Source of the DNA: an uncultured Myxococcales bacterium
GTDB taxonomy: Bacteria > Myxococcota_A > Polyangia > Palsa-1104 > JAEUJZ01
NCBI GenBank assembly: GCA_964628555.1
Contig: CAZVMD010000003.1
Span: forward strand, 264 to 64,263
Direction of reading: 5' to 3'
DNA: 64,000 bases
Made by a program: the position numbers and the translations under genes. How positions within the stretch are numbered: position 1 is the stretch's first letter; each line of letters opens with the position of its first letter. Below, in pieces: positions 3,815 through 46,648 of the stretch. The notes under the pieces were generated by a model. The model saw nothing but the letters and a program-made list of their open reading frames with translations. It had not been told where the DNA came from and did no database searches.

Positions 3815-3826
3815 AGAGGAGGAGCC

Positions 3827-5501: not shown

Positions 5502-6107
5502 TCAGAGCAAGCGGATGGGGTAGCGAGCGCTGCCGAGGACCAAGCTCAGGCGGCCGCGCGGCGGGCCATCATAGCGCTCGTCGTCGCTGTCGCGCTCGTC
5601 GCTGCGCTGGTAGGCCGCATCGCTGTCGTCGTCGTCCTCTTCTTCCACGTGCTCGGCCAGGGCGAAGTAGCAGGGGCGCGAGAAGCGAGCCGGCAGGCTG
5701 CGGCCCTTGACCAGGCACACAAAGCCGCGGCGCGGCTCATAACGCAGTGTGTCGAAGGCCAGATCTTCCTCGCTGCCATCGCTGAGGCGCAGGCGGACGC
5801 GCAGCGGCTCGGCCGTGCCTTCGTCCCCGCTGAAGCGCACCTGGGTCACCCAGTAGGGCACGTCGATCACCACCAGGGGGTAGCTAAAGGGCGGCACGAC
5901 CAGCAGATAGCTGCCGCCCGGCGTGCGCTGGATCGAGCGATGGAACAGCTCGCAGATGCGTGGATCGTCGAGCAGCTCGCCCTCGTGCCAGAAGTTGCCC
6001 TCGCTGTCCAAGGTGATGCGCTCGAACTTCTGGCCGCGGCGCAGCGCGTCTTTGATCGGCTCAGGGATCGTGGGGTCGAGCAGCCAGGTCGCTTCGGGCT
6101 CGGTCAT
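5502..6107 (-). CDS. DUF1285-like protein
   Basis: 201 aa. The pattern FWHEGELLDDPRICELFHRSIQRTPGGSYLLVVPPFSYPLVVIDVPYWV matches what I recall of DUF1285. It has an acidic C-terminal tail. Confidence 0.55.
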   Translation of the reverse strand: MTEPEATWLLDPTIPEPIKDALRRGQKFERITLDSEGNFWHEGELLDDPRICELFHRSIQRTPGGSYLLVVPPFSYPLVVIDVPYWVTQVRFSGDEGTAEPLRVRLRLSDGSEEDLAFDTLRYEPRRGFVCLVKGRSLPARFSRPCYFALAEHVEEEDDDDSDAAYQRSDERDSDDERYDGPPRGRLSLVLGSARYPIRLL

Positions 6108-7908: not shown

Positions 7909-8644
7909 CTTCTGGCACACTGCCGACGCCGAATCGCCAAGCGAGGTCGTCGTGCACAGTCGCCCCCAGTCCCCCCCGCTGTCCATCCAGATCGTTCCCG
8001 CCGAGCAGCTAGCTGAGCTTCGCCGCGCCGCTGCTGACTATGTGGCGCGGGCTACCGGCTGTGCGCTCGACGGCAGCGAAGAGTCGCTGGCCTATGTCGA
8101 TCACTATCTGGATCGCCTGCGCGCCGATCCGCCGCGCCGTCCCGAGGCCCTGCGCTTGGTGGCGTTTGCGCTGGGCACCTACCTGGGCGACCTGGCGATC
8201 GCGCGGTTTGGCGGCCGCTGGCTGGCGCTGCCGGCGGCTGCGAGCGCGGGCGATGCTGCCGAGGCGACGAGCGATCCCAGCCTGGCGCCGCTGGCTTGGC
8301 GCGTCGATCTGGACGCGGCCCCGCTGCGCTTCGATCCCATCGGCATGGCGCAAAGCGCGTTCTCCGATCTGGTGGCGACTGACGATGCCGAGCTTGCGGG
8401 CCTCGAAGCCGACGACGGCATCAGCCTACGTCCGGGGGCTCGCTCGCTGCAGGCGGCGCTGCACGACGCACTGGCTCGGCTGGCTCCGGTCAGCGCCGAC
8501 TACTACTACTCGTTCACCGGCCGCTTTGAGACGCTGGCGCACATCGTCGAGCTGACCGTCGAGCTGCAGGGACAGGCCGCGGCCAGAAGTGCCGACGCCG
8601 ATGCGGCGGCCGACGCCAGTGCCGATCGGCCGCTTGTGCACTAG
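7865..8644 (+). CDS. hypothetical protein
   Basis: 259-aa ORF with coding-like composition. The true start is probably downstream (for example the in-frame GTG near 7949), because 7865-7908 overlaps the FG-GAP gene. No family recognised. Confidence 0.5.
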   Translation: MSMARCRSSLTAPANFWHTADAESPSEVVVHSRPQSPPLSIQIVPAEQLAELRRAAADYVARATGCALDGSEESLAYVDHYLDRLRADPPRRPEALRLVAFALGTYLGDLAIARFGGRWLALPAAASAGDAAEATSDPSLAPLAWRVDLDAAPLRFDPIGMAQSAFSDLVATDDAELAGLEADDGISLRPGARSLQAALHDALARLAPVSADYYYSFTGRFETLAHIVELTVELQGQAAARSADADAAADASADRPLVH

Positions 8645-8658
8645 CGGTCAAAAGGGCG

Positions 8659-10551
8659 ATGTGGGTCTCGCCGCCGCCTAGCCCATGGCGCAGGAGTGCG
8701 CCACGCTGGGGTCTAGCTGGCCTCGGTCTGGCACTCTGTCTCTGGGCCTGGGCGTCGTATACACGGCGGCTCGCAGCGACGGGAGAAGCCTCCCATTCAG
8801 AGCGCTCAGCCGCCACCGCGACAGCTCGCTTTATCGGGCTTGTGGTCAGTGACGGGACGCCGGCGACGGATCCCCTGTCGCCTCGCTGTCTGTGGCTGCA
8901 GGAAGCGCGGCTTCCCGGGGTGTGGTACAGCGCGACCGGCCAGCGCGTGCGCGGTGAGCTGTCGGCGCGGCTGTGGCCACTATTGACCCTCGCCGTGCCG
9001 CTGCGCGAGCGGCAGCTTGACACCGGAGACGACGACTACGGTCTGCGTCGCTGTCGGCTGCGGGTGCTCTGGGGGGCTGGCACTGAGCCGACGCGGCAGC
9101 TGTGCTTTGGCGACGACGCGCCCGGCGATCTGATCTACGCGCGGGCAATGTCGCTGCCGGCCGAGCGCCAAGCGGCGAAGACGGCGACCCCGCTGCAGGG
9201 GGGCTGTGCCGACCTGGCTGCGCTCAGCGCGCCGACGCTGCCGCTGCAGCCAGGGCAGCGGATCCTGCTCCTTGAGCGGGCGCTGTTTGTCGAGCTGACG
9301 CAGGCCCTGGTGAGCTCCTCCGAGCTGCGGCTCTTGCCGTTTGCCGCGGGGCAGGTGCAGCGCCTGGAGCTAAGCGACGGAACTCAGCTGCAGCGCCGCG
9401 CGGCCGGCTGGGTCGATGGGCAGGGCGTGGCCCTCAAGGCCGCAGCGGTGCATGAGCGGCTGGTGGAGCTCGGGCGGGCCGAGCTTGCGCCCCTTGTGCC
9501 CTCCCCGCCGGTTGTCCCGCCGATTGCCTCACCGGCGGCTGCGCCTGGCGAAAAGCGGCTGCGGATCAGCACCGCCTCCGAGACCATCGAGCTACGGCTG
9601 CGCGGCGAGCACATTCAGCGCGATGGCGAGCCGCCGGTCCCGCTGTCGCCCGGGCTCTTGCGGCTCTTTACCTGGTCAGCGCGACAGCTGCGCGATCGCC
9701 GAGTGATGGCTGCCCTGCCGAGCGCCGTCACCAGCCTTGCGACCCAGGCGCTGCCGCCGTCCTCCTCTCTGCCCAGCCAGCGGGCCGAGCGGCAGCCGCA
9801 AGGCTTTGTGCTGACCGCGCCGCTCCGCGACCAGGCCGATGGACCGCTCCTGCGTGCGCTCCTGACGACGCTCGGCGGACTGTCGGCCGAGTCCGAGCTG
9901 CCGGACGAGTCAGGACCCCTGGCCGGCCCGGCGCTGCAGCTGTCGCTTGGGGCGGGGACGCAGACGCAGGAGCTGCGGATCAGCGCACCGCAAGCCGAGG
10001 GCTGTCAGGTGCAGCTCCTGTCCCCGGCGCGACGGCTGGTGCTGCGGCCGGCCGACTGCCAGCGCATATGGCCGCTGCTGACGCAGCCCTGGCCCAGCCG
10101 CAGCCTGCTGCTGCTCGACGATGCGCGACTGGTGTCGCTGTCGGTGCAGTGCGGGCCAAAGACGCAGACGCTGACCCGGCGAGCCGATGGCCTGTGGCTC
10201 GGGGAGCGCCGCTTAGAGGCCGAGCCGCGTCGTCGGCTGTGGACGGCGCTGCACTCGCTGACCCGGGCCGAGAGCGTTCGCTACCGCAGCCGCTCCGACA
10301 CCCACCCGGCAACGGCGCGCTGCCGTCTGCGGCTTGTGCATGCTTCGTTTGCGCCGCTGCAAGCACCAGAGGTCGTGGCGCCCGACAGCGCTCCCGCCGC
10401 GCAGTGTCTGGAGCTCCTCAGCGATGGCTGGCTGCGGCGCTGTGACGGAGGCGTCGAGTACTCACCGTCGTCGGCCGGCCAAGCTACGTTGCTGTCTGCA
10501 TTGTCCATTACGTCAGCAGGCCCTTCGCCCGCGGCGGCCGACGCACCTTAG
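8659..10551 (+). CDS. hypothetical membrane-anchored protein (DUF4340-like repeats?)
   Basis: 630 aa with an N-terminal TM (WGLAGLGLALCLWAWASY). Repeated segments of the type L..L.V....T..L.R...GW.. are reminiscent of DUF4340. This assignment is weak. Confidence 0.5.
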   Translation: MWVSPPPSPWRRSAPRWGLAGLGLALCLWAWASYTRRLAATGEASHSERSAATATARFIGLVVSDGTPATDPLSPRCLWLQEARLPGVWYSATGQRVRGELSARLWPLLTLAVPLRERQLDTGDDDYGLRRCRLRVLWGAGTEPTRQLCFGDDAPGDLIYARAMSLPAERQAAKTATPLQGGCADLAALSAPTLPLQPGQRILLLERALFVELTQALVSSSELRLLPFAAGQVQRLELSDGTQLQRRAAGWVDGQGVALKAAAVHERLVELGRAELAPLVPSPPVVPPIASPAAAPGEKRLRISTASETIELRLRGEHIQRDGEPPVPLSPGLLRLFTWSARQLRDRRVMAALPSAVTSLATQALPPSSSLPSQRAERQPQGFVLTAPLRDQADGPLLRALLTTLGGLSAESELPDESGPLAGPALQLSLGAGTQTQELRISAPQAEGCQVQLLSPARRLVLRPADCQRIWPLLTQPWPSRSLLLLDDARLVSLSVQCGPKTQTLTRRADGLWLGERRLEAEPRRRLWTALHSLTRAESVRYRSRSDTHPATARCRLRLVHASFAPLQAPEVVAPDSAPAAQCLELLSDGWLRRCDGGVEYSPSSAGQATLLSALSITSAGPSPAAADAP

Positions 10552-13721: not shown

Positions 13722-15824
13722 TCAGCGCGATAGCAAAAGTCCAGCCAGGCGCGGCACGACATCGAGCTGCGCTCCGTCGAGGTTTTCCGGCAGCGCGGCC
13801 AGGCTATGGGCCAGCGTGGTCAGCGTCTCGCGCAGGAAGCGCTCGCTCTCCGCCACCCACAGCGCCTTGAACTCGGCCTCGCCAAACGAGCGCGAATAGA
13901 CGCGCTCGCGCAGGCTCGCCAGGACCTCGGTGATCCGCGCGGCCGGCGGCTCGGGGAGGGGCCCAGCGACCTGCCCCGGCGTGGGGAAAGGCGGCAGCTT
14001 GTCGCCCCAGACCGCCCGGCGCAGCGACGGTAAATCCTGGCGCGACAGCGGCACCAGAGCCGGCGGTCGGCCCAGAAGCAGGTTGCCGATCAGCGTGCCC
14101 ACAAGATCGCTAAGCTGCGCCTCGGCTTCGTCCGGCACGGCGCGCTTGAGCGTCTCGGTGATGTGCTCGCTGCGCAGGCCCAGGCCGGTGCTCAGGAGCT
14201 TGCTGAGCGTCGATAGCTCGCCGACCAGCGCAGTCGCCCGGCCAAGATCGGCCAAGCTGACAAACGGTCGCAGCTGGGTGGCCGCAGGCGGCAGCGTGCC
14301 GCGCTCGGCGGCCTGGCGATCGAGATAGGGACTGTACAGCGGTCGCACCAGCAGCAGCGCCGACAGCGGCTCGCCCAGGCGCGGCGGCAGGCGCGTGGCG
14401 ATCGCGGCGGGATTGCCCGCAGCCGGTGGCGTAGCGCTGCGCATCGGCGTCAGCAGGCCCTCGCTACTGCTGAGCAATAGCAGGAGGAGCTTGCGCAGCT
14501 GCACGGTCAGGCCATAGCCGATGCGGAACAGATGCAGGAGCGAGATCTCGCGCAGCACCTCGGCGGCGCGCGCCGCCTCCAGCGCAGCGGTCGCCGCCTG
14601 AGCCGCAGGTGAGCTGGCCGCGGTCGTCGCCGCATCCGCCTCGTCGCTTGAGCTGGCGCTCTTGGCTGGCCGGGTGCGCAGGCGGTACTCGATGCCCAGC
14701 GACAGATAGCCAACGGTGCGACGCAGGGTCTGGCGCAGCGCCTCGACATCGCCGAGCTCGACGCGATCGGCGGCCAGCACGCGGTTGCCCAGCACCATCA
14801 AGTGCTGCACCAGCAGGGCCTGCTCGGGCTCGCTAAGCAGGGCCACGCCGCGCGCGAAGGCACAGTCGTCGGCGCCCAAGCCAGGCACGGTCCGCAGCAG
14901 CGCTCCCGAGACGGTGTCACTGCCCGGCAGCACGTGCACCGCGGCCGGTGGCGACTGGCTCAGCGCGGCGGCGAGCGGCTGCAGCTCCGAGGGCGGCGGC
15001 GGCTTTTCTGGATCGAGCAGCAGATAGACTTTGAGCGCCTCGTAGTAGTCGATGTAGCCGAGATCGGCCATGCGCCCGCTGCGGAAGCGATAGGCGGCTT
15101 CGGCGGTCTCGGGACCGACGTCGTAGCCAGCGCTGTGGACAATCGCACGCGCGAGCTCAGCGTTACCGCGATACAGGATGTCGAGCAGCCGCGCGATCTG
15201 CGCCTGGCTGTCGCCGGCATCGCCAAAGCTCTCGACCGGCCGCCCGTCTTCGCCGTCGCTGTGTGGGCCTGGCGGCGGCAGGATGTCGACGCGAAACATG
15301 CGATCCGGCGTGTCGAAGAACTGCCCCTCGGCCTGCTCGGGCGGCTCTTCGTTTTTGTAGATGTCATAGACGCGCAGGCGCGGTCCCAGGATCGCTGTCC
15401 ACAGCTCGGGATCAAGCGCCGCCGCGACGCTGGTCAGCTTGGCTGGACCCAGCTCGCCAAGCGCCAGCAGCCAGGGCAGCACGCGGTCGAGCGAGGCCTG
15501 ATCGCGATCCCAGCCGTCCATATCGACAAACGCCTGCACCTGCTCGGGCGAGCACAGCGAGAGCACATCCAGCGCTTCCTGCAGGCCCAGCGAGCGCACA
15601 AACAGGAACAGCGGCTGGGCTGGCGTGGCCCGCACCAGGCGTCCCACATCCGGCCGCTCTAGAAGCTGCTCTAGGATCTCGGCCGGCGGCGCGCTCTGGG
15701 CCAGCCACTCACCGCCGCTGGCATAAAGCGGGGTGACGGTCGGCGACAGCTGAGAAGGTGGCGTGGGCGAGCCGCGCGGCGCACTACGCTGCGCGGACAG
15801 AGGAGGAGAGGGACGCTTGGGCAT
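13722..15824 (-). CDS. large conserved hypothetical protein
   Basis: 700-aa ORF with coding-like composition, packed between the SDR gene and moeA (6-bp and 18-bp gaps). I cannot confidently name a family. Confidence 0.6.
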   Translation of the reverse strand: MPKRPSPPLSAQRSAPRGSPTPPSQLSPTVTPLYASGGEWLAQSAPPAEILEQLLERPDVGRLVRATPAQPLFLFVRSLGLQEALDVLSLCSPEQVQAFVDMDGWDRDQASLDRVLPWLLALGELGPAKLTSVAAALDPELWTAILGPRLRVYDIYKNEEPPEQAEGQFFDTPDRMFRVDILPPPGPHSDGEDGRPVESFGDAGDSQAQIARLLDILYRGNAELARAIVHSAGYDVGPETAEAAYRFRSGRMADLGYIDYYEALKVYLLLDPEKPPPPSELQPLAAALSQSPPAAVHVLPGSDTVSGALLRTVPGLGADDCAFARGVALLSEPEQALLVQHLMVLGNRVLAADRVELGDVEALRQTLRRTVGYLSLGIEYRLRTRPAKSASSSDEADAATTAASSPAAQAATAALEAARAAEVLREISLLHLFRIGYGLTVQLRKLLLLLLSSSEGLLTPMRSATPPAAGNPAAIATRLPPRLGEPLSALLLVRPLYSPYLDRQAAERGTLPPAATQLRPFVSLADLGRATALVGELSTLSKLLSTGLGLRSEHITETLKRAVPDEAEAQLSDLVGTLIGNLLLGRPPALVPLSRQDLPSLRRAVWGDKLPPFPTPGQVAGPLPEPPAARITEVLASLRERVYSRSFGEAEFKALWVAESERFLRETLTTLAHSLAALPENLDGAQLDVVPRLAGLLLSR

Positions 15825-23678: not shown

Positions 23679-25733
23679 TTAGCTGACCGGCAGAAGAGCG
23701 CTGGCGCTGCCGCCGGCTGCGGCCGCGGTGCCGCTGTCTTCGTCGAGGTTGAGGCGCATCACGGCCACCGGTGCGTCAAGCCCGCGCACCGACAACATAA
23801 AGCGCGGCCCCAGGCGCAGCCCGACCCCCGCCAGCGCGCGCTCGGGCGGTCGCTTGGCCAGCCCTTCGCCGAGATCGGCGGAGAGCACGATGTCGCCGGG
23901 ATGGGCCTCGCGCAGCAGTCGCAGACAGAGTCCAAGGGTGGCGCCAAAGTAGTCGAGCAGCTGACAGTGGCCTGGCGTCACCAGGTGGGCCGGCCCGGCG
24001 TACACGCCGATGCGCAGACCGACCGCGCTCTTTCCGATCGGCTGGCTCTCTTTGAGGGCTTTGAATGCCTGCTGCGCTTCGATGGCGGCCAAGGCTGCGG
24101 CTTCGGCGTCGGCAAAGGCGACCAGCAGGCCGTCTCGCTCGCTGCGCACCACCACCCCGGTCGAGTCGCTCGCCTCGTCTTCTTCGCTGCGCCGCGGCAG
24201 CCGGCGGGGCTGCTCGAACAGCTGTCGCAGCCGCGCGAAGTGAGCATCGACAAACTGAAAGGCCACCGCGTCGCCGGCCCGCTGCTGCAGCTCCACCAGG
24301 CCGGCCAGATCGGTGTGCAAGAGCGCCACCTGTGGCACCGAGAACAGCCGCCCGGCCGGCAGCCACTGCGCCTGCGCTGGCCCGACAAACAGCCGCCGAA
24401 ACAGCGGCTGCAGCGTGACGCTGTGCGCGCTGCACAGCGGCGGTGGCGTCTCGCTGCGCCGCACGGCCAGATGGCGGGGCTGGGTGTGCTCGTGCGTGAT
24501 GTGCAGCGTGCCGCCCATCGCGACTTCGACGCTGGCCGGCGCGATCGCCTCGCCGACCTGCAGCTGGGCACTGGCCTGGCCAAGCGTGCTGACGTTGAGG
24601 CGGGCCTGCAGGCCGCCGCGCACAAAGATCTCGTAGTCGCCCGGGGCGCGCGGGGCGCGGAGCTCGGTGGTGCCGGTGGCGGGCAGCAGGATCTGCGCCT
24701 CGATGTGCGGCGTCTCGCTGGGTCCGCCGATGGCGTAGGCGACGCTCTTGCTGGGCGTGTGACGCACGATCTGAGGGCGCAGGCCGGGCGCTACCGCAAA
24801 GCTGACTGCGACGCGATCGTGCAGCGTGGCCGGGACGATCAGATCGCAGCGCGGGCAGGTCGCGCTCTCGGGCAGCTCAGTCAGTCGGGCGACGCGCAGT
24901 GCTGGCCGCAGGCAGGCTGGGCAGATCAGATCCCAGTGCAGCGTGAACAGTCCGTGCGCCGCGCCGGCCAAAAAGGTGCTGAGCAGCCCACTACGCGAGA
25001 CTCCCCATGCATCCGCCAGGGCATAGGGATTCAACGTATCGTCGTCGAGATCGTCGAGCTCAGCGACGTACTCCAGCAGGCGATCAAGCAAGTGATGACG
25101 AGAGGTATCTTCGACCCCCCCGAGGAGGGGAGGCTCAGCAGGCTGGGCCTGATGAGGGGGAGCTGGAACGGTCTCCCCGGTTGCGGGCAAAAAAAGCTCG
25201 GAGAGCGCGCCGCGCGCCGCGCGTGCTCCGGCAGTCAGCTTGGGTACTTCGAGCGCGGTGACCCGCCGCAGCAGCCCCGAGCCCCGCGTCAAGTCGGCTT
25301 CGATCTTGCGCAGCGTAGACAAAAGCTGACGCAGCGAGATCTCACCGTATAGACGCAGCAGCAACCGGAGCGCCGGACTGCGCGGCGCAAGGACCAGTTC
25401 GATGGCAAGGCGGCATCCCTGGGGCTGCGGCGAGAGCACAAAGTGCGTCTCGATGCGGCGTATCGGCCCGCGCGGATACTCGCGGCGAAGGACCAGCCGC
25501 TCGGGGGTCTGCCACTCGACCGGAAGCTCCCAAAATGCCAGCCCCCCCCACGCGCGCTCGGAGAACATCTCGTAACGAGCGGCGCTATCGGGCTGGTTTT
25601 GCAGAGGCCGGTACATGAGCGGGACTTGACCGAGCGCGCGGTACAGCCGCGACGTATCCGCCAGAGCCGACCACAGCGCCTGCGGTGCCGCTGTGGACTC
25701 AAGCTGCCGTTTGAGTGTGATGGAATCCATCAA
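23679..25733 (-). CDS. class III adenylate/guanylate cyclase with N-terminal SRPBCC-like and zinc-ribbon modules
   Basis: 684 aa. The C-terminal cyclase block is VALLHTDLAGLVELQQRAGD...DGLLVAFADAEAAALAAIEAQ...VGLRIGVYAGPA...DYFGATL. A mid-region CPAC...CPRC pair is present. Confidence 0.75.
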   Translation of the reverse strand: MMDSITLKRQLESTAAPQALWSALADTSRLYRALGQVPLMYRPLQNQPDSAARYEMFSERAWGGLAFWELPVEWQTPERLVLRREYPRGPIRRIETHFVLSPQPQGCRLAIELVLAPRSPALRLLLRLYGEISLRQLLSTLRKIEADLTRGSGLLRRVTALEVPKLTAGARAARGALSELFLPATGETVPAPPHQAQPAEPPLLGGVEDTSRHHLLDRLLEYVAELDDLDDDTLNPYALADAWGVSRSGLLSTFLAGAAHGLFTLHWDLICPACLRPALRVARLTELPESATCPRCDLIVPATLHDRVAVSFAVAPGLRPQIVRHTPSKSVAYAIGGPSETPHIEAQILLPATGTTELRAPRAPGDYEIFVRGGLQARLNVSTLGQASAQLQVGEAIAPASVEVAMGGTLHITHEHTQPRHLAVRRSETPPPLCSAHSVTLQPLFRRLFVGPAQAQWLPAGRLFSVPQVALLHTDLAGLVELQQRAGDAVAFQFVDAHFARLRQLFEQPRRLPRRSEEDEASDSTGVVVRSERDGLLVAFADAEAAALAAIEAQQAFKALKESQPIGKSAVGLRIGVYAGPAHLVTPGHCQLLDYFGATLGLCLRLLREAHPGDIVLSADLGEGLAKRPPERALAGVGLRLGPRFMLSVRGLDAPVAVMRLNLDEDSGTAAAAGGSASALLPVS

Positions 25734-25881: not shown

Positions 25882-28626
25882 TTACAGCGGGCGATAGCGA
25901 TCGGGCAGGGGAGACTCTGGGCCTTTGACATCGTCGAGGGTCTCGCCGCGGCGCAGCAGCACCACCTTTCCATCAGCGGCCACCATGACCACGGCCGGCC
26001 GCAGCTGACTAAACTGCATCCACTGGGTGACGTTGTAGGCCCCGACCGGCGCGATGACTACCTGCTGACCCGGCGCGAGCGGCGGCAGCGGCAAGCCGAC
26101 CCGCAGCGTGTCGATGTTCATGCACAGCGGACCGTACAGCGAGGTCTCTTCGATCGGGCCGGGCACCGGCTGGGCGGGCGTGACGCGATGGCGATACCAG
26201 TGCGCGGTGTACAGCACATTGAGGCCGGCATCGAGCACCAGGCCGCGACTGCCCAGGCTGCTGTTTCCCGTCGCTGGATTGCCGCCAATGCTGCGCCGGC
26301 CGACCACCGTGGCGATCAGGCTGCCGGCGTCATCGACCAGATGGCGACCGCTCTCCAAGATCAGCGTGGGGATGCCGCTGGCGTGGGGGCCGCTTTGGGC
26401 CAGGCGATCGCCAAAGCAGTCGAAGAGCTCGTCGCAGATGGCGCTGGCAAACGGCGTGATGTCGGGTCCGTCTTCGCCGCCTTCGCCCTCGTTGAAGCTG
26501 CCGGTCAGGCTGTTGGTCGAGGGGAAGCCGCCGCCCAGGTTGATGGTCGATAGCGGATAGCCGCAGAGCGACTCGGCCGCCAGGTACAGCTCGCAGAGGC
26601 GCGAGGTGGCCTGCCGATAGGCGCTCGGCTCGGCGATATAGGTTCCCAGATGGCAGTGCAGCCCGGCGAGGCGCAGGCGGGGATTGACGGCGATGCGCAG
26701 CACGGCATCGAGCACCTCGCCGCTGTCGAGGCTGAAGCCGAAGCGCTCCCAGGTCGCACCGGACAGCGCCGGCACCTGCATGTTGACGCGCAGGCCGATG
26801 GCCAGAGGCGGCGTTGCGGCGGTTCGCGTCGCCACCAGCTCTTCGATCAGGTTCAGCTCATCGAAGTGATCGACCTGGATGAAGGCGCCATCGGCGATCG
26901 CCTGAGCCAGCCAGGCTCGCGGCTTGTGCGCTCCGTTGCAGACGATGCGCGCGCCGCTTAAGCCCAGCCGACGGGCCATGGCGTATTCCAGGTCCGAGAC
27001 CACCTCGGCGTCCCAGCCCTCCTGATGCAGGATGGCGCAGATGCCGTCGAGATAGTTGGTCTTGTACGACCAGCCAAAGCGCGTGCGGGGATAGCGGCTG
27101 GCGAAGGCCTGGCGAAAGGCGCGGGCCCGACTGCGCAGCCGCGCTTCGCTGAACACAAACAGCGGCGAGCCGTAGCGCGCCACTAGCTCGGCCACCGGCT
27201 GGCCCTCGATGTGATCGCAGACGCGATGCTGTGCACCGTCGCTGGGCAGGCGATTGCCGACCGCCGCATGATGGCGCAGGAGCGCTGGGGCCTGGTAGGC
27301 GCGCCGCACCGGCGGCGGGGTCGGCGCAGCCCCGGGCAGGGTCAGCGGCTGCAGCGCATCGCTCGATGGGGAGCGCGGCTGCGACGAGCCACTTCCCGTT
27401 CCTGAGCCGCGCTCTGCCGCCCGCTCGCTCTGCCGCTCGCCCTCGCGATCGAGGATCGCCGACAGCGAGACGGCGCGCGGCTGCAGCGCCTCGTCTCCAT
27501 CGGGTAGCGTGCGGCCAGTGGTGCGCGGCGACAGCTCGACCTCGCCCCGCTGCACCATCGCTTCATAGATCGATAGCTCGGCCGGAACATCCAGCGAGCG
27601 GCGCAGCTGCAGCACCCCGGAGTAGTAGGTGTCATAGGCCGGCACGGCTTCGCCGAGCGCCAAGCGCACCAGCGCCCAGGGCAGGTTCTGTCCCGCGGCG
27701 GCGGCCAGCGCGATCCAGGCGGGAAAGCGCGGGTTGATCTCGATCAGATACAGCTCGCCGCTGTCGCGATGGCGCATCAGCTCCAGCTCCAGCGCCCCGG
27801 ACCAGCACAGGCCCGAGACGACGCGCTGGGCGGCGCGAATCAGCTCGGGATCATCGACGGTCAGCGCCCCCCAGGCCTTGCCGCGATCGTCGAGCTGCAG
27901 CTTCTTCATCGGCACCGCACCGACGATCTGCCAGGCCTCGTCGGCCAGCGCGACGACATCGAACTCGGTGCCCGGAACGTACTCCTGCAGCACCACCGGG
28001 TAGCCCCAGCGCGTGGCGTGCTCGGTCACGGCTGCCGCCATATGTTCCAGGCTGTGCACGACGGTGGCCCCGTGCAGGTTGCCTTTGACGACAAACGGCA
28101 GCTTGAGCTTGCGCGCCCCCTGATAGGCCTCGGCCAGGCTGCTTACCGCCGTCGAGCGCGGCACCTTGACCGCCGACAGGGCGCTGACCGTGGGCAGCTC
28201 GGCCTTGCTGCGGCGCTTGAACGCCGCCGCGCTTGGCAAGAGCAGATGAATTCCCATGCGGCGCAGCTCAGGCTGCAGCGTGATGTAGTGGCCCAGCTCA
28301 GAGTCGAGCGTCGGCACGATGACATCCAGGCGCTCGCGGGCGTGGATGTAGCGCAGGCGAGCCAGCAGCGCCGACGGACCCTGAGCCGGATAGGGCAGAA
28401 GATAGCTGGCGTCGAGCAGCTGGCGATCGTAGCTGGCGGGCTCCAGCGGATCGTACGAAAAGCCGACGATGCGTGGCCGAGTGATCGCGCTAGCGCGGGC
28501 GGCACCTGGCCCACTTGCAGCCAGGCCACCGTGGACGCCGCTGCGCAGGCTCTGCACGACAGGCAGGCCGGGCGCCAGGGTGCCCACCACCGACAGCCCC
28601 GAGACGGCGATACAGAGCTCGCTCAT
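25882..28626 (-). CDS. fusion protein: N-terminal ATP-grasp ligase and C-terminal Orn/DAP/Arg-type (fold III) PLP decarboxylase
   Basis: 914 aa. The ATP-grasp blocks are PFVVKGNLHGATVVHS, VVLQEYVPGTEFDV and ELYLIEINPRFPAW. A low-complexity linker (GSGTGSGSSQPRSPSS...APTPPPV) joins the two halves. The decarboxylase blocks are YGSPLFVFSE, SYKTNY (PLP lysine context), INLGGGFPS, ESGRHLVDDAG and GPLCMNIDTL. Confidence 0.85.
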   Translation of the reverse strand: MSELCIAVSGLSVVGTLAPGLPVVQSLRSGVHGGLAASGPGAARASAITRPRIVGFSYDPLEPASYDRQLLDASYLLPYPAQGPSALLARLRYIHARERLDVIVPTLDSELGHYITLQPELRRMGIHLLLPSAAAFKRRSKAELPTVSALSAVKVPRSTAVSSLAEAYQGARKLKLPFVVKGNLHGATVVHSLEHMAAAVTEHATRWGYPVVLQEYVPGTEFDVVALADEAWQIVGAVPMKKLQLDDRGKAWGALTVDDPELIRAAQRVVSGLCWSGALELELMRHRDSGELYLIEINPRFPAWIALAAAAGQNLPWALVRLALGEAVPAYDTYYSGVLQLRRSLDVPAELSIYEAMVQRGEVELSPRTTGRTLPDGDEALQPRAVSLSAILDREGERQSERAAERGSGTGSGSSQPRSPSSDALQPLTLPGAAPTPPPVRRAYQAPALLRHHAAVGNRLPSDGAQHRVCDHIEGQPVAELVARYGSPLFVFSEARLRSRARAFRQAFASRYPRTRFGWSYKTNYLDGICAILHQEGWDAEVVSDLEYAMARRLGLSGARIVCNGAHKPRAWLAQAIADGAFIQVDHFDELNLIEELVATRTAATPPLAIGLRVNMQVPALSGATWERFGFSLDSGEVLDAVLRIAVNPRLRLAGLHCHLGTYIAEPSAYRQATSRLCELYLAAESLCGYPLSTINLGGGFPSTNSLTGSFNEGEGGEDGPDITPFASAICDELFDCFGDRLAQSGPHASGIPTLILESGRHLVDDAGSLIATVVGRRSIGGNPATGNSSLGSRGLVLDAGLNVLYTAHWYRHRVTPAQPVPGPIEETSLYGPLCMNIDTLRVGLPLPPLAPGQQVVIAPVGAYNVTQWMQFSQLRPAVVMVAADGKVVLLRRGETLDDVKGPESPLPDRYRPL

Positions 28627-29168
28627 GGCGCGTCCTCCTCGTCTTCTTCTCCGTCATGGAGGCTGGCCCCGGTGGCGGGACTCTTGTCGCTCTGGGCGAC
28701 GGCGCTGGGGCGCTCGCGCGGCAGCTCCAGCAGCCCGACATCGAACAGGCGGGCCAGAAACAGCTGGGCATCGCGCTGCGCCACAAGCTCGCTGACTTCG
28801 AACTGCGCCACCAGCACCCGCCAGACATCGATCGGCGGCACACCGCGCTTTAGCGCTTGCAGCAGGCAGCTTCCGGTCTCGTTGAGCGAAAACGTCTCGC
28901 CGTCGCGCACGTTGAGCAGAAAGCCTGACTCAGAGAGCTGCAGGCGCGGCACCAGACGGGCACCCATAAAGCGTGTCGGCAGCGGCCGCAGCGGTCGGGG
29001 GGACGGTGGGGAATCGATCGTCATGTGGATGGCCAGCGAGCTCCAGGCATCGGCTAGTTGGGGGACAGCTGGGCGGCGTCTGTTCGGGCTCGTCGCCCGC
29101 GGCCCAGCGTCAGCCCCGGGGGGGCGCGTGTATCTAGGCCAAGACAAAGGCGTTTCCGATGTTATCAC
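28623..29168 (-). CDS. PqqD-like (RRE-type) small protein with acidic C-terminal tail
   Basis: The PqqD-like core is LQLSESGFLLNVRDGETFSLNETGSCLLQALKRGVPPIDVWRVLVAQFEVSELVAQRDAQLFLARLFDVGLLE. The tail is HDGEEDEEDAP. Its stop overlaps the ATG of the ATP-grasp fusion (ATGA at 28623-28626). The start is ambiguous: GTG 29168 as in the track, or more plausibly ATG 29024 (MTIDSPP...). Confidence 0.7.
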   Translation of the reverse strand: MITSETPLSWPRYTRPPGADAGPRATSPNRRRPAVPQLADAWSSLAIHMTIDSPPSPRPLRPLPTRFMGARLVPRLQLSESGFLLNVRDGETFSLNETGSCLLQALKRGVPPIDVWRVLVAQFEVSELVAQRDAQLFLARLFDVGLLELPRERPSAVAQSDKSPATGASLHDGEEDEEDAP

Positions 29169-29325
29169 CTCGCCCCACGGCGATAACAGAGGCTGTCTGG
29201 CCTTTGTCGCGACCCCGCGGCCCTGGCCCCCGCCGACTACAAATCCGTCGCGGCAGCGGGTGATCAGCCCACACGCTGCGTGCTATCATCGGATGGGCAC
29301 TCAAGAATTCGGGAGAAGCAAGCAC

Positions 29326-30396
29326 ATGCGACGCATGCACAACAGTCCCGGGCGGCGCACCGCGCTGTCCTCCGTATTGGCAACCGGTTTGGCAACCGGG
29401 CTTCTGGCTGGCTCGACGCTGCTCTTGTCAGGAGCTGGGGGCGCCGGCTGCTCGTTCTACCTGCCGGAGCGCGCGAGCTGCAGCGGCGATGGCGGCTGCA
29501 AGCCGAGCGACCTGGGGGCCAGCCCCGACATGGCCAAGGACGTCAACGATCCCTCGGGCGCCGGGCCCTATCAGGTGGCTTCGCTGACCACGCCAACCCC
29601 GCCGGCTGGCATCAGCGGCCTGATGCTGCTCGGTCCCAGCGATGATGGCTCGTCGCTGTCGAAGAAGGAAGCGACCTATCCGCTGGTGCTGATCGCGCCG
29701 CCGGAATATACGAACAGCTCGGCGATGCGGCCGTACGGGGATCGGCTGGCCAGCCATGGCTTCCTGGTTGCGCTGTACGACGTCGCGAACCAGATGAACC
29801 ACACGACGTATCGCGACTCGGCCAAGGCGCTGCTGGATACCTTCGTCAACAACGCCGCGACGCAGCACATCGACACCCAGCGCCTGGGCCTGGTGGGCTA
29901 TCAGCTCAGCGGCAAGATCAGCGCCTCGCTGGCTGCCACCGACAACCGCATCGGCGCCTTGTTCCTGGTCGATCCAGTCGATGTCTCGACGGCCAGCGGT
30001 CCGATCGATGGCATCAGCGAGATCGCGCGCGTGACCCTTGCGGGCAATGCCACGGTGGCGCTGATCGGCGGTCAGATCACCACGACTGGCTCGCCGGCCT
30101 GCGTGCAGTCGTCGACCAAGAGCTTCCAGAACTTTTACGACGCGGCGCGCATGCCGGCCGTGGCCATCCTGTTTGGCGGCGCCAACCTCGGCGACTTCAT
30201 CGACAACTACTACGACACCTACTGCACCAAGGACTCGACGGCACCGCGGACGCGCACGCAGGACCTGAGCAAGAAGTACATGACCGCCTACTTCCAGTGG
30301 TCGCTCAAGGCGCGGGCCCGCTCGCGTGAGTACCTGCTGGGGGCTGACTTCGCGACCGATCAGCAGAACTCGATGGTCACTCGCCAGTCGAAGTAG
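29326..30396 (+). CDS. secreted alpha/beta-hydrolase-fold protein (dienelactone hydrolase/cutinase-like), catalytic residues apparently substituted
   Basis: This is the real gene inside the 875-aa track ORF. The in-frame ATG at 29326 gives MRRMHNSPGRRTALSSVLATGLATGLLAGSTLLL (signal). The blocks GPYQVASL, YPLVLIAP and LASHGFLVALYD are typical of this fold. The nucleophile elbow reads GYQLSG instead of GxSxG. Confidence 0.7.
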   Translation: MRRMHNSPGRRTALSSVLATGLATGLLAGSTLLLSGAGGAGCSFYLPERASCSGDGGCKPSDLGASPDMAKDVNDPSGAGPYQVASLTTPTPPAGISGLMLLGPSDDGSSLSKKEATYPLVLIAPPEYTNSSAMRPYGDRLASHGFLVALYDVANQMNHTTYRDSAKALLDTFVNNAATQHIDTQRLGLVGYQLSGKISASLAATDNRIGALFLVDPVDVSTASGPIDGISEIARVTLAGNATVALIGGQITTTGSPACVQSSTKSFQNFYDAARMPAVAILFGGANLGDFIDNYYDTYCTKDSTAPRTRTQDLSKKYMTAYFQWSLKARARSREYLLGADFATDQQNSMVTRQSK

Positions 30397-31192
30397 CGGC
30401 CGCCGCGGCAGCGACATAGGCCGCCGCGCGGGCGGTCAGCTCTCGTCCTTCCTCGTCCACCGCCTCTGACAAGAGCGCGCGCAGACAGGCCACCCGGGCC
30501 CCCAGCGCCGCGCACTGCGTCACGCGCGGCAGCGAGTCAATTCCCCCCAGGGCATAGATCGGTAGCGTGCAGGCTCGGCCCAGCTCGGCCATGGCCTGCG
30601 CCAGGCCAGCCAGCCCCAGCGGCGACACATCCCCGCGACGCGGCGACCGCCACGGCTTCGACGGCGTTGGCCAGATCGGGCTTAGCGTAATGGCGTCGGC
30701 GCCAGCCTGCAGCAGCATGCGCGCCTCGGGCAGCGAGTGGGCGGCGGCACAGAGAAAGCGGCGGGGGCCCAAGAGCGAGCGCGCGGTCTGCACCGGCAGG
30801 CCATGCCCAGGCAGATGAACCCCGTCGGCCTCGACCGCTAGCGCGACATCCAGGCGATCGTTGATCAGAAGCGGAGCGGCGTAGCGCGCGGTTAACTGCC
30901 GCAGCGCGATGGCTCGTTCGTACAGCGCGCGGCCTGGAAGCTGGCGGTTGCGGAGCTGCACCGCGATGCTGCCCGGTGGCACCGCCGCCAGCACCGTCGC
31001 CAAGCGGGAAAGCACCGCCTGCGGCGCGACCGCGTCGGGCGCATCAGGCAGCGTGACTCCGTCGGTAATTAGCAGCACCGCCGCCGCAAGTGGTGGCAGC
31101 TGCACGGCCCGCGGGGGCGCCGGCAGCGGGAACCCCCCGACGAGCAGCACTGGCTGCAGAGCGGGCCGTGAGCTGGGCGCCGCGTCACTCAA
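30377..31192 (-). CDS. thiE: thiamine-phosphate synthase
   Basis: 271 aa. Recognisable blocks are [32 protein letters not shown] and PIYALGGID. An 8-nt overlap with the thiG stop implies an operon. Confidence 0.8.
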
Positions 31193-32114
31193 TGTCGTAA
31201 GGACCGACGGGCGGCAGCGCGCTCTCGCCAGCCTTGGCGGGCAATAGGCCGCTCTGCGGCGATGAGGCGTTGGCGTACAGCTTGCGACCGATGCGACCGG
31301 CTCGGAACGCCTTGCGACCGGCCTCCACCGCCTGGCGCATCGCCTCGGCCATCAGCACGGCGTCCTTGGCTCCGGCAATCGCCGTGTTCATCAGCACGGC
31401 GTCGCAGCCGAGCTCCATGGCCACCGCCGCATCCGAGGCCGTGCCGACGCCAGCATCGACGATCACCGGCACCTTCACCGTCTCCATAATGATGCGCAGG
31501 TTGTAGGGATTGCGGATGCCCAGGCCCGAGCCGATCGGGGCAGCGAGCGGCATCACCGCCGCACAGCCGATCTCGGCCAGGCGCAGGCAGGCAATCGGAT
31601 CGTCGGTGATGTAGGGCAGCACGACGAAGCCCTCCTGGACCAGCACGCGCGCCGCGGCCAGCGTCTGTTCGACGTCGGGAAACAGGGTGCGCGGATCGCC
31701 GATGACCTCCAGCTTGACGAAGTCCGACAGCCCCAGCTCACGCGCCAGGCGGCAGGTGCGGATGGCCTCGTCGGCGGTGTAGCAGCCAGCGGTGTTGGGC
31801 AAGAGCTGATAGCGGCGACGATCGAGGGCCGACAGCAGGCTTGGCTTGCCCGGCGTCAGCTCGACGCGGCGCAGGGCCACGGTGACGATCTCGGCTCCCG
31901 AGGCGGCGAGCGCCTGGTTCATCTCGTCGAAGTCGCGGTACTTGCCGGTGCCGACGATCAAGCGCGAGCGATAGCTGCGACCGGCGAGCACGAATTCATC
32001 GCCCGCCGGGGTCGGCGAGGCGGCGGGTGCGGGGGCGCCCGGTTGGGGAGCAGGTTGGTGGGCGGCAACCGAGGAAGCAGCCGGGGCAGGCTGTGAGGCG
32101 GCAGGCGTGGTCAT
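31185..32114 (-). CDS. thiG: thiazole synthase
   Basis: The core is [36 protein letters not shown]...[17 protein letters not shown]...VKLEVIGD...[14 protein letters not shown]...[13 protein letters not shown]. The start is set at ATG 32114 (AGGGA 8 nt upstream). The track ORF extension to 32366 looks non-coding and would overlap the divergent gene. Confidence 0.9.
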
Positions 32115-32360
32115 CGTAGCATCCCTATGGGCAGGCCCCGATCCCGGGGCGAAACGGGCCGGTACAACCAGGGCAACGGGGGCAACAGGGGGAGCACTGT
32201 AGTCCCGCCGACCTTGAGAAGCTAGCCCTGCAGCAGGGCGGCAGGCGCCGGTTGGGAGTGCTTGTACTCGACGTGTGCGGTCGATACACTGCCGGCCCAG
32301 CTCGGAGCCCAGCGTCTCTGACGACAGCGACGACAGCGCCCGGCTCAAAGACATCCGATC

Positions 32361-37049
<4,689 letters not shown>

Positions 37050-44152: not shown

Positions 44153-44529
44153 AGCGATGTGTTTTTCTGATGGCTGCGCTGTCCCTGCTTGCGCTTCCCG
44201 CCTGCCGCAGCGCGCCCGCGACGACCAAGAGCTTGCCCAGCGGCCAGGTCTGGCTGCAGCTTGAGCCCGCGACGGCCAGCGTGATCATCGATGAGCGGCC
44301 GCTTCTGGTGCCGCGCGAGGCCGGTGGTCTGCGCCTGGCGATGCCGATCGGGCCGCACCGCTTCGAGGTCTCGGCGCCGGGCTACTTTGCCGCCTACCGC
44401 GAGGTCACGGTGCAGCTGGGCAGCCCGCAGTCGGTGCAGATCACGCTGCGCGCCGATCCCGATGCCGCGCCTGACGCCACGCCCGCCCGGCCGTTTGGTC
44501 CGCCGCCGCGGACGCCCGACGTGCCCTAG
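44149..44529 (+). CDS. PEGA-domain lipoprotein
   Basis: ATGA overlap with the upstream gene. The lipobox is LLALPAC. The PEGA-like block is ATASVIIDERPLLV...GPHRFEVSAPGYFAAYREVTV. Confidence 0.65.
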   Translation: MKRCVFLMAALSLLALPACRSAPATTKSLPSGQVWLQLEPATASVIIDERPLLVPREAGGLRLAMPIGPHRFEVSAPGYFAAYREVTVQLGSPQSVQITLRADPDAAPDATPARPFGPPPRTPDVP

Positions 44530-46367
44530 CGACCAAGCACGAGAAGCTGCATCAGCAGCACCGCGATCACCCCAATCAGCACGCCGAGCACGATGGCGAT
44601 GATGACGCTGGCGCGGTTGGCGCGAGCCGGTGGGGTGGCCATCGTCTGGCTGGCCAAGGCCAGCGGCGGCACAACGGCGGCTGACTGGCTGGCGGCGGCG
44701 ACTGGCGAGAGCGCGGGCTGCACCGGCGGCAAGGCCTGCATCGGCTGCAGGTTGGCAGCAGCCAGCGCCGACGGCTTGATCGCCGGTGGTACGGGCTGGT
44801 CGAGGCGCGGCAGTCCCAGCCCCGAGGACAGCGCCGGATCGATGGCCGCGACCGGGGCCAAGATTGGCACCGAAGGCACGGGAGCGATCGCCGCGCCGCT
44901 CTGACTGACAGCGGCGCTGCTGGAGTCGGCCTGCGCCTCGCCTGAGCCAGCAAAGCTGGATGCGCCGTCGGGAATGATGCGCATCGGCATCGACGTCGCC
45001 GAGGCCGGAGCGTTCATGCCTGCCGCGGAGCCGCGCGGTGGCGGTGGCGGCGGCGGCTTGCTCATGCGCGAAGGGGCCAGTGAGCGGCCGGCCGCGTCAT
45101 TTGCTCCCGAAGGCACCGGGGGCAGACCGGTCTGGCTGGCGTCGCGGCTGCCCGACTTGGGCACCACCATCGCCTTGCGCTGCTGGATCTGACTGGCGCT
45201 GATGACCTGCAGCGGCATGGTCATGGCCCGTCGCGGTCCCCCCTCTGCCGACTGGCCGGGAGGCGGCGGCGGGCCCGGCACCCGACCCGAGAGGTTGCGC
45301 ATCGGCATGCCGCTCGACAGCCGATCTTCGACGGCGCTTGGGACCGAAGCGCTGGCCGCCATCGACGCCGCAAAGGCCGCCTCACGCTCGCGCTCGCGGC
45401 GCTCGCGAGACAGCTTGTCGGCGAAGATCTCTTTCATATAGCGGCCAAGAGCAGCGCCGCTGGCATCCCAGCCCGAGCGCTCGACGTACTCGATCAGCGC
45501 ATCGTGAAACGCCTTGGCCGATTCCCAGCGTCCCTCGCGATCCATGGTCAGGGCGCGCATCAGGATGTCGTCGAGCTCTTTGGGCACCTCGGGGTTGACC
45601 GTGGCGGCCGGCGGCGCCGGCTCTTCAGTGACAGCGACCAGCGTCGCGAGATCGGTGGCGCGCTTGAACAGACGCCGCCAGGTCAGGAGCTCCCACAGCA
45701 GCGTGCCGACGGAAAAGACATCGGAGCGGGCATCGAGCTGATCGCTGCGCGTCTGCTCGGGCGACATGTAGGCGTACTTGCCCTTGATCATGCCGGCCTG
45801 CGTCTGATCCATGTCGCGGGCCCGCGTCGCCTTGGCGATGCCAAAGTCGATGATCTTGGTCACGCCCTCGTAGGTCACGAGCACGTTCTGCGGCGAGACA
45901 TCGCGATGGACCAGGCCTAGCGGATGCCCATCGTCGTCGGGCAGCGTGTGGGCATAGTGCAGCCCGGCCAGCGTGTCGATGATGATGCGGACGACGACTT
46001 CCATCGGCGGTCGCTTGTGCACCGCGTCCGCCTGCTGCGCGATGCCGCGCAGGTCCTCGCCGTGGATGTACTCCATGGCCAGGTAGTAGGTGCCGTCCGA
46101 CTCGCCCTGATCGAAGATGTCGACGATGTTGGGGTGCTTGAGCTTCGTCGCCAGCTTCGCCTCGTTCATGAACATGCGCACGAACTCGGCTTCCGAGCTG
46201 TGGTGCGCGAACAGGCGCTTGACGATAATGGGCGACGGGCGACTAGCAATGCGTGGAGGCGCAAGTGCAGGGTTCGGCCTGGCCAAGTAGATCTCGGCCA
46301 TGCCGCCTTCCGTCAGCTTGCGCTCCAGCATGTATTTCCCGTAAGGGACAGCCACGGCCACAGCCAT
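44526..46367 (-). CDS. Ser/Thr protein kinase, C-terminally tail-anchored
   Basis: The Hanks motifs are GGMAEIYLA, IIVKRL, HRDVSPQNVLV, DFGIAKA and GKYAYMSPEQ. A long Pro/Ala/Ser-rich region precedes a terminal TM (VIIAIVLGVLIGVIAVLLMQLLVL). The start is set at ATG 46367 (MAVAVAVPYGKYML); the track ORF extends to 46535. Confidence 0.9.
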   Translation of the reverse strand: MAVAVAVPYGKYMLERKLTEGGMAEIYLARPNPALAPPRIASRPSPIIVKRLFAHHSSEAEFVRMFMNEAKLATKLKHPNIVDIFDQGESDGTYYLAMEYIHGEDLRGIAQQADAVHKRPPMEVVVRIIIDTLAGLHYAHTLPDDDGHPLGLVHRDVSPQNVLVTYEGVTKIIDFGIAKATRARDMDQTQAGMIKGKYAYMSPEQTRSDQLDARSDVFSVGTLLWELLTWRRLFKRATDLATLVAVTEEPAPPAATVNPEVPKELDDILMRALTMDREGRWESAKAFHDALIEYVERSGWDASGAALGRYMKEIFADKLSRERREREREAAFAASMAASASVPSAVEDRLSSGMPMRNLSGRVPGPPPPPGQSAEGGPRRAMTMPLQVISASQIQQRKAMVVPKSGSRDASQTGLPPVPSGANDAAGRSLAPSRMSKPPPPPPPRGSAAGMNAPASATSMPMRIIPDGASSFAGSGEAQADSSSAAVSQSGAAIAPVPSVPILAPVAAIDPALSSGLGLPRLDQPVPPAIKPSALAAANLQPMQALPPVQPALSPVAAASQSAAVVPPLALASQTMATPPARANRASVIIAIVLGVLIGVIAVLLMQLLVLGR

Positions 46368-46648
46368 GAAAAGACGACCCCTCGAATCGTATGATGCTTT
46401 CGCCTGGAGGGTCAACCTAGTATAGAGCGGTCGCTTTTGGCAGAATCGCCTGCCCGCTAGCCTTCCCGGGGCTTCCTTGGAGCCTGAAGCCCGCCTGGGC
46501 GACCGACGGAAACCAGCGTCGCCTTGGGCCCCCAATCGTCAGCCATCGTTCAGTACAGTGCTCAATCCGGGAAGAGCCGATTATCGTTCAATCGGGCGCC
46601 GCATCGGCTGCCCACATTTGCCTAGCAACGTCGCGAAGGAGACCTCGC

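Follow-up and report, generated by a model that had tools for sequence, protein, structure and literature searches.

The locus described in this work lies in a 64,000-nt stretch of DNA, hereafter the window, from an uncultured Myxococcales bacterium (contig CAZVMD010000003.1 of GenBank assembly GCA_964628555.1, positions 264 to 64,263). On its minus strand, an open reading frame (ORF) of 914 aa (25882-28626) encodes an ATP-grasp ligase and a pyridoxal 5'-phosphate (PLP) decarboxylase in one polypeptide, and is directly preceded by a gene for a small PqqD-like protein, whose TGA stop codon overlaps the ATG start of the fusion (ATGA). An initial annotation of the window had recognized both the single ligase-decarboxylase polypeptide and the PqqD-like nature of the upstream gene, and our results bear out the two assignments. 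Three Pfam domains scored above their cutoffs in the 914-aa protein, namely ATPgrasp_Ter (aa 211-328, 45 bits), Orn_Arg_deC_N (aa 496-764, 87 bits) and Orn_DAP_Arg_deC (aa 764-862, 32 bits); the motifs quoted in that annotation are present (EINPRF at aa 296-301, SYKTN at 520-524, GGGFPS at 698-703 and ESGRH at 758-762), as is a catalytic-Cys loop, GPLCMN, at aa 832-837. The upstream ORF matched PF05402 with an E value of 3.3e-9 and 37.4 bits (cutoff 23.4) over profile positions 4-67 of 67, and by this curated cutoff belongs to the PqqD family, which comprises recognition elements (RRE) of peptides that are made on ribosomes and modified after translation (RiPP). Together with the comparative analyses presented here, these data identify a widespread and uncharacterised cassette constituted by a predicted ligase and conjugate decarboxylase with an unprecedented PqqD partner, of which the window holds a rare fused form.

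An AlphaFold2 (AF2) model of the ligase domain (aa 1-365) reached a pLDDT (predicted local distance difference test) of 87.5 and a pTM (predicted template modelling score) of 0.87, and a Foldseek search with this model returned many ATP-grasp enzymes at a probability of 1.00, the best being 2pn1. Residues K181, E296, N298 and R300 are invariant in the ATP-grasp; the fold, the Lys and the E-x-N-x-R Mg/ATP motif of the superfamily are thus all found. Assignment to a specific ATP-grasp family was attempted and discarded, as sequence and fold searches gave generic matches only (2pn1, carbamoyl phosphate synthetases, biotin carboxylases and L-amino-acid ligases), and the acid and amine substrates of the predicted ligase cannot be read from homology.

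The second half of the protein has the features of an alanine-racemase-fold decarboxylase: PF02784 and PF00278 matches, SYK522TN, GGG698-700, ESGR758-761 and C835, with the PLP-decarboxylase catalytic motifs conserved in 81-85 cassette homologues. The lysA model TIGR01048 matched with an E value of 3e-48, but with 164.2 bits against an equivalog cutoff of 297.9; the model for the N-citrylornithine decarboxylase FslC/FigC (NF041039) gave 177 bits against a cutoff of 500, which places the enzyme outside that family. Among solved structures in the PDB, FigC/FslC (7kh2) was the best match (157 bits), while diaminopimelate (DAP) decarboxylases (DAPDC) all scored 98 bits or less and BtrK 68 bits. 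In DAPDC structures, the Arg and Tyr of the R-P-x-L-Y specificity helix hold the distal carboxylate of DAP. This helix reads F-L-R-P-S-L-Y in 2qgh and L-I-R-P-A-L-Y in 2yxx, versus L-Y-T-A-H-W-Y in the window and a cassette consensus of L-F-T-[AS]-F-W-Y; the DAPDC Arg is replaced by Thr in the window, and FigC also lacks it. Given the sub-cutoff TIGR01048 score and the lost DAP-binding arginine, the housekeeping reading was rejected: judged by these residues and scores, the cassette decarboxylase is not LysA, which agrees with the view of the window gene taken in the initial annotation, and its closest relative is FigC. FigC, SbnH, AcsE, MccE and BtrK are grouped together as DAPDC-related enzymes, which act on amino acids whose side chain is already conjugated and decarboxylate them (PMC7857480). 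Enzymes of the FigC group need a free alpha-amine for PLP; therefore, the ligation partner would be attached through the side chain, and ligation would precede decarboxylation.

The PqqD-like protein of the window likely starts at ATG 29024 (133 aa) rather than at GTG 29168, since the segment LPTRF(M/L)GARL is conserved in homologues. Its best NCBIfam match was the lasso PqqD chaperone model, with 33 bits (cutoff 70). In PqqD/RRE proteins, a winged helix of three strands followed by three helices takes up a peptide as an additional strand. The family, which was found in loci L001-L090 as well, displays the motif S-x-S-G-F-[VL]-[FL]-[DN]...SLN..G. The window protein ends in an acidic tail, EEDEEDAP; across 78 PqqD-like proteins, the C-terminal tails share neither a conserved residue nor a common length. 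With no conserved acidic acceptor at this variable C-terminus, a role of PqqD as a LysW-type amino-group carrier is unlikely.

In order to find relatives of the fusion, a word-indexed search of 5.8 billion proteins was carried out. It retrieved tandem double ATP-grasp proteins and no more than 11 homologues with the fusion (57-100% identity); the 11 come from different samples and each is a single ORF, which rules out an assembly artefact, and the PqqD gene always lies directly upstream in the contigs that carry them. Further, an alignment of the ATP-grasp domain was scanned against one genome per species, giving at least 594 confirmed relatives, and the best 80 loci were examined, with cassette genes identified by home-built hidden Markov model (HMM) and phmmer searches of all ORFs. 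In nearly all of these loci, which come from about ten phyla, the order PqqD, ATP-grasp (~350 aa) and decarboxylase (~450 aa) is kept on one strand, the genes being almost always separate and those of PqqD and ATP-grasp overlapping by 4-8 nt. They were found in Bacteroidota (Cyclobacterium, Algoriphagus, Chitinophaga, Flavobacterium and others), Balneolales, Ignavibacteriota, Neomarinimicrobiota, Myxococcota including Sorangium, Desulfobacterota, Nitrospirota, Bryobacteraceae, Brocadiia and Melainabacteria. The survey of gene neighbourhoods in Myxococcota that had been proposed for the PqqD/ligase/decarboxylase adjacency thus gave a positive answer, which extends far beyond that phylum.

At E<=1e-30, an exhaustive profile search for the ATP-grasp family counted 388 representative clusters; of the 150 best, ~110 are single-domain, ~30 are tandem and one only stands for the fusions. 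The ligase::decarboxylase fusion is, then, a rare state derived from a common core of three genes, and is confined to a narrow Polyangia-like clade, which includes a protein 81% identical to that of the window, from a Polyangia metagenome-assembled genome (MAG; L007). A second apparent fusion, in L073, was discarded as the artefact of a run of N. Furthermore, in locus L090, whose variant cassette is typical in other respects, PqqD is fused to the ATP-grasp (P0072, 477 aa, 3550-4983); next come a 290-aa ATP-grasp-like protein that has lost the E-x-N-x-R motif (LTALTPGF; 4980-5852) and, later, a protein combining a urea-transporter (UT) domain with SIR2 and GNAT (7233-9344). Fusions in both directions and overlapping stop and start codons suggest that the three proteins act together; on the basis of the natural fusions, the ligase and the decarboxylase, and likewise PqqD and the ligase, are predicted to be functionally coupled.

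Between the two domains of the window protein, a low-complexity linker had been placed at 27246-27441 (aa 396-461). The linker is real, but its variable part, rich in S/P/G/R and differing among the 11 fused homologues, corresponds to aa 366-440, and is followed by a conserved segment (aa 441-462), RRAYQAPALLRHHAAVGNRL, with the core YQAPAL at aa 444-449; Y444, P447, R451, H452 and R459 are invariant among the fusions. This segment has its counterpart in stand-alone enzymes: 81 of 83 cassette decarboxylases begin with a ~23-aa extension, K..[YF]-E-[RK]-P-x-[IL]-x-[RK]...G...K-[FY]-G, at a fixed offset from a GSPLFV anchor, and the motif is also recognizable in divergent variants (YEVPSI in L006 and YQPPLI in L090). 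Charged residues lie at fixed distances from the YxxPx[IL] core (E+1, R/K+7 and K+15), the fused lineage having Q at +1 and R at +15. No solved decarboxylase aligns to the extension. The core equals the YxxPxL motif of lasso-peptide leaders, in which PqqD-like B1 proteins depend on Y(-17), P(-14) and L(-12) for binding (PMC10368454).

In a search for a precursor peptide, all ATG ORFs of 18-90 aa around the cassette, from -2.5 kb to +7 kb, were collected and clustered. The conserved small-ORF families near the cassette were all shadow frames of real genes, and after gene masking no small ORF was common to more than three near-identical loci among ~75. The gap upstream of PqqD has a median of 148 nt and measures less than 45 nt in 12 loci, which leaves no room there for a small ORF. 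For lack of an adjacent precursor peptide gene in ~75 loci, the cassette is not recognizable as a RiPP biosynthetic gene cluster. Neither an acyl carrier (PP-binding) protein nor a LysW-like protein is present in the cassette, the one PP-binding domain in the window being part of a 1562-aa protein, unrelated and encoded on the opposite strand, and no NIS synthetase (an enzyme of siderophore assembly independent of nonribosomal peptide synthetases) was found in any locus. The initial annotation had envisaged a module acting on a tethered substrate, and is supported in part: the three modules are real and their adjacency is conserved, and no conserved precursor ORF, acyl carrier protein or LysW-like carrier accompanies them at the loci. 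Cassette proteins matched no PADLOC defence model, save for a marginal SIR2 match in the variant, and a known anti-phage defence system was discarded on this result. The arrangement had also been regarded as undescribed; no NCBIfam model describes the cassette, nor do full-text literature searches aimed at this system, a graspetide survey or a 2025 RRE survey contain a description of it, but the fusion itself is only a rare form of the three-gene cassette.

The genes that follow the trio differ between lineages. A ~728-aa protein with a full-length UT-family membrane domain (218 bits) and an M23 metallopeptidase, the latter with conserved HxH and catalytic His, comes after the decarboxylase in 68 of 84 loci; since no transmembrane (TM) helix separates the two domains, the peptidase is probably cytoplasmic. 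Two signal-peptide tetratricopeptide repeat (TPR) proteins usually come next, one of which (~450 aa; for instance L010, 12596-13951, within a cluster of 40 loci) has an alternating hydrophobic end and a terminal F that recall an outer-membrane beta-barrel, with no Pfam barrel domain detected in it. A variant cassette consists of PqqD, a tandem ATP-grasp or an ATP-grasp with a degenerate copy, the decarboxylase, and UT fused to SIR2 with or without GNAT. In a Bryobacteraceae MAG (L009, 6544-12537), the genes bordering the trio code for an O-methyltransferase, a cytochrome P450 and a TylF-type methyltransferase, no UT-M23 protein is present, and the locus looks like a secondary-metabolite cluster. 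In two Bacteroidota loci (L022, 6178-7708; L030, 6222-7706), the PqqD gene is directly preceded by genes for an extracytoplasmic function (ECF) sigma factor, for a small protein of unknown nature and for a periplasmic LTXXQ/Spy-like protein, which hints at envelope-stress control of the cassette in some members of this phylum.

These usual partners, the UT-M23 protein and the exported TPR proteins, are missing from the window, where no UT or M23 relative was found. In six of seven fused lineages, a soluble 615-684-aa SRPBCC-DUF5939 protein follows the fusion in the place of UT-M23; this family (found after the fusion in L003, L007, L087, L088 and L089) is a conserved partner of the fused lineage only, and its class III cyclase-like C-terminus is a weak match below cutoff (E 0.011). 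A Ser/Thr kinase is often next, in the same position in L001, L007, L087 and L088. The coordinates of the window features are given in Table 1.

Table 1. Features of the cassette locus in the window.
Feature	Position	Strand	Evidence
PqqD-family (RRE-type) small protein, 133 aa	28623..29024	-	Pfam PF05402; mechanical ORF reaches GTG 29168
ATP-grasp ligase domain, aa 1-365 of the fusion	27532..28626	-	Pfam ATPgrasp_Ter and ATP-grasp_3, AF2, Foldseek, invariant residues
Variable low-complexity interdomain linker, aa 366-440	27307..27531	-	Composition; unconserved in 11 fused homologues
Conserved segment RRAYQAPALLRHHAAVGNRLPS, aa 441-462, candidate PqqD docking peptide	27241..27306	-	Matches N-terminal [YF]xxPx[IL] tail of stand-alone cassette decarboxylases
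Alanine-racemase-fold PLP decarboxylase domain, aa 463-914 and stop, FigC/FslC-like	25882..27240	-	Pfam PF02784 and PF00278, PDB matches
684-aa soluble protein: SRPBCC (START-like) N-terminus, DUF5939, weak class III cyclase-like C-terminus	23679..25733	-	Pfam; no TM segments
Ser/Thr protein kinase, 387 aa	22479..23642	-	Pfam Pkinase, E 1e-45
Hairpin resembling a terminator, between the PqqD gene and the 329-aa gene upstream of it	29322..29340	-	Consensus scan only

From the above we infer a chemistry, a role for PqqD and a type of product. With ATP, the ATP-grasp enzyme would form an amide via the side chain of an alpha-amino acid, either joining the omega-amine of an ornithine-, lysine- or diaminobutyrate-type residue to a carboxylate, or the omega-carboxylate of Glu or Asp to an amine, and would leave the alpha-amino and alpha-carboxyl groups free. 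The FigC-like decarboxylase, as expected from its family, would then bind the free alpha-amine to PLP and remove the alpha-carboxylate, and the product would be an N-acyl diamine or an omega-aminoacyl amide. That a PqqD-organised complex ligates first and decarboxylates afterwards is the core common to the models considered here, and we regard it as probable. As to the acceptor, we tentatively favour, at somewhat less than even chances, a small-molecule route in which PqqD, ATP-grasp and decarboxylase form one complex: PqqD would sit on the ATP-grasp and grip the [YF]xxPx[IL] tail of the decarboxylase, holding the enzymes together or gating them, and this docking would explain the lack of a precursor-peptide gene. 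The preference is based on that lack, together with the UT channel, the SRPBCC partner, and the SIR2, GNAT, P450 and methyltransferase neighbours. The product would probably be a small amine-bearing metabolite, handled in most lineages by the UT-like membrane protein fused to M23 (or to SIR2/GNAT) and by the exported TPR proteins; in the window lineage, the SRPBCC-DUF5939-cyclase-like protein and the Ser/Thr kinase, standing in place of these partners, suggest intracellular sensing. The more specific proposal that a PqqD/RRE has been repurposed from RiPP leaders to a leader-like YxxPx[IL] enzyme tail, so as to assemble or gate a metabolon for a new amine metabolite present in many phyla, is on balance unlikely.

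Known systems share parts of this scheme. ATP-dependent side-chain amide ligation followed by alpha-decarboxylation with an alanine-racemase-fold PLP enzyme, as predicted here, takes place in the rhizoferrin pathway of Francisella (FslA/FslC, or FigA/FigC) and in staphyloferrin B synthesis (SbnE/SbnH), and FigC resembles the cassette enzyme both as its best solved-structure match and in lacking the DAPDC arginine (PMC7857480). However, the ligase of FslA/FslC is an NIS synthetase and that of the cassette an ATP-grasp, PqqD has no counterpart there, no siderophore genes lie near the cassette, and the specificity helix of the cassette decarboxylase is aromatic and unsuited to citrate. Butirosin biosynthesis likewise pairs an ATP-grasp (BtrJ) with an alanine-racemase-fold decarboxylase (BtrK) acting on tethered glutamate; there, the substrate is borne by the acyl carrier BtrI, which the cassette lacks, the similarity to BtrK is low (68 bits) and no PqqD takes part. 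By curated cutoffs and defining partners, the cassette is accordingly placed outside FslA/FslC, SbnE/SbnH and BtrJ/BtrK. The N-terminal domain of MccE (microcin C) belongs to the same DAPDC-related group and works on a peptide-borne aminocarboxypropyl group (PMC7857480), and GNAT occurs in some cassette variants as it does in MccE; in contrast to microcin C, no MccB-type adenylating enzyme, heptapeptide precursor or nucleotide chemistry is evident in the cassette. Lasso systems also join a small PqqD-family protein (B1) with a Y-x-x-P-x-[LI] motif available for binding, but in the cassette this motif is carried by an enzyme instead of a precursor, and the B2 protease, lasso cyclase and precursor gene are lacking. 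LysW/LysX and RimK/S6 likewise combine an ATP-grasp with a small acidic partner, as the acidic tail of the window PqqD recalls; the cassette partner, however, has a predicted PqqD fold rather than a zinc ribbon and an unconserved C-terminus, and LysX and RimK are absent from the best sequence and fold matches of the cassette ATP-grasp.

Several observations weigh against the small-molecule, tail-docking reading. No close relative of the ATP-grasp has been characterised, and the structure that matches it best, 2pn1, is of unknown function, so that the ligation chemistry is predicted only from the superfamily. The YxxPx[IL] likeness involves a short motif and was spotted a posteriori, the full-length AF2 model is poor (pLDDT of 47.9), and we know of no PqqD-family protein that docks an enzyme tail, the known members binding precursor peptides. 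PqqD and the tail motif are both kept in the covalent fusion; therefore, simple bridging would not be the whole role of PqqD. A Bacteroidota locus (L085, 6762-6958) keeps the tail, ATP-grasp, decarboxylase and UT-M23 with no PqqD ORF in the 196-nt upstream gap, and is the only clear PqqD-less case among the evaluable loci. Moreover, a peptide substrate accords no less well than a small molecule with the intact M23 metallopeptidase of the canonical cassette. This peptidase and the known role of PqqD place second a pathway tethered to a peptide or protein, which we deem possible yet rather improbable: PqqD would bind a precursor, scaffold peptide or protein tail encoded elsewhere, the ATP-grasp would add an amino acid to it via the side chain, the decarboxylase would trim the tethered residue, and in canonical cassettes the membrane-anchored M23 would, next to the UT-like channel, free or process the product for its export. 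Every characterised PqqD/RRE protein is a chaperone of peptides, and the match to PF05402 is clear; one lineage has PqqD fused to the ATP-grasp, as RREs are to RiPP enzymes; MccE and BtrK demonstrate that this group of decarboxylases can use peptide- or carrier-bound substrates (PMC7857480); M23, with its zinc and catalytic motifs and probable cytoplasmic location, resembles a leader peptidase fused to an exporter; and the signal-peptide TPR proteins, one of them barrel-like at its end, suggest an export route. Against it stand the small-ORF results, including the 12 loci with less than 45 nt upstream of PqqD, the absence of an acyl or LysW-type carrier and the variable PqqD C-terminus, as well as the replacement of M23 by SIR2 or SIR2 plus GNAT in the variants and by the soluble SRPBCC protein in the window lineage, which would be odd for a leader peptidase. 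In addition, UT channels let small polar solutes pass, and not peptides.

The decarboxylase tail might itself be the substrate, as a swinging arm presented by PqqD to the ATP-grasp, loaded with an amino acid and then decarboxylated in cis or in trans. Its conservation and the fixed distances of its charged residues agree with such a role, as does the spacing from Y to K-F-G (+15 to +17), which equals that from Y(-17) to the cleavage site in lasso precursors (PMC10368454). Nevertheless, no acceptor is invariant, for the fused lineage, which retains PqqD and both enzymes, has Q and R in place of the candidates E+1 and K+15; the tail was hence rejected as acceptor, and we hold this explanation to be very unlikely. 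At least as improbable is the decoration of a poly-amino-acid or envelope polymer, in which the ATP-grasp would serve as polymerase or amidoligase, and an exopolysaccharide-like export route would be formed by the TPR proteins with the putative outer-membrane barrel. The exported TPR proteins do resemble the TPR parts of PgaA, BcsC and PrsT, one of them has the barrel-like C-terminus, and some Bacteroidota have the envelope-stress genes for ECF sigma and LTXXQ upstream; yet no conserved glycosyltransferase or polymerase-type gene is present, a PLP alpha-decarboxylase cannot act on internal polymer residues, and the entire export set is missing from the window lineage. The least credible explanation, which we practically discard, is that of an ordinary DAP decarboxylase of lysine biosynthesis (LysA) fused by chance to an unrelated ligase, with PqqD adjacent incidentally: to the low E value of the TIGR01048 match and the presence of DAP decarboxylases among the PDB matches are opposed the bit score far from the cutoff, the Arg to Thr change, the FigC score well above that of every DAPDC, and a trio conserved across phyla and joined by fusions.

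In the mining of ribosomal peptide natural products, RRE/PqqD domains serve as the main handle that does not depend on class. In the present cassette, which occurs in hundreds of genomes of about ten phyla, PqqD is tied to two enzymes, an ATP-grasp and a PLP decarboxylase, and no precursor peptide is apparent. Either this is a hidden peptide or scaffold pathway whose substrate is encoded elsewhere, or RREs have a second role as enzyme-docking modules, and either outcome would alter the interpretation of RRE matches. If true, docking of an enzyme tail would make this the first RRE recognising an enzyme rather than a substrate, and would define a new class of precursor-less RRE-dependent pathways. 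The chemistry would extend the route of conjugating first and decarboxylating second, used for siderophores and butirosin, to an ATP-grasp enzyme, and the natural ligase::decarboxylase and PqqD::ligase fusions constitute ready constructs for biochemistry.

As for the surroundings of the cassette in the window, the hairpin listed in Table 1 is weak evidence that the PqqD gene would begin a new transcription unit. An 875-aa ORF (27769-30396, plus strand) lies opposite the fusion, the PqqD gene and the gene after it; it looks like the shadow frames typical of GC-rich DNA and is probably not a gene. Rfam and tRNA scans of the window found nothing. Elsewhere in the window, a 700-aa DUF6178 protein (13722-15824, minus strand) and a second Ser/Thr kinase of 669 aa (44526-46535, minus strand) are encoded, with no link to the cassette seen. 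Genes thiE (30377-31192) and thiG (31185-32366) lie on the minus strand, with no thiamine pyrophosphate (TPP) riboswitch detected near them in the window by Rfam at the gathering threshold. The thiG ORF has 393 aa, with the ThiG domain from aa 127 only and homologues called at 292-307 aa, and its N-terminal part is probably an over-extension. The plus-strand gene at 32361-37049 encodes the 1562-aa protein mentioned above, with NAD_binding_4/Sterile reductase, AMP-binding, PP-binding and PlsC-type acyltransferase domains, which we take to resemble the myxobacterial ether-lipid enzyme ElbD. This gene, thiG and thiE also flank the cassette in L087 and L088, and the neighbourhood is therefore syntenic within the clade.

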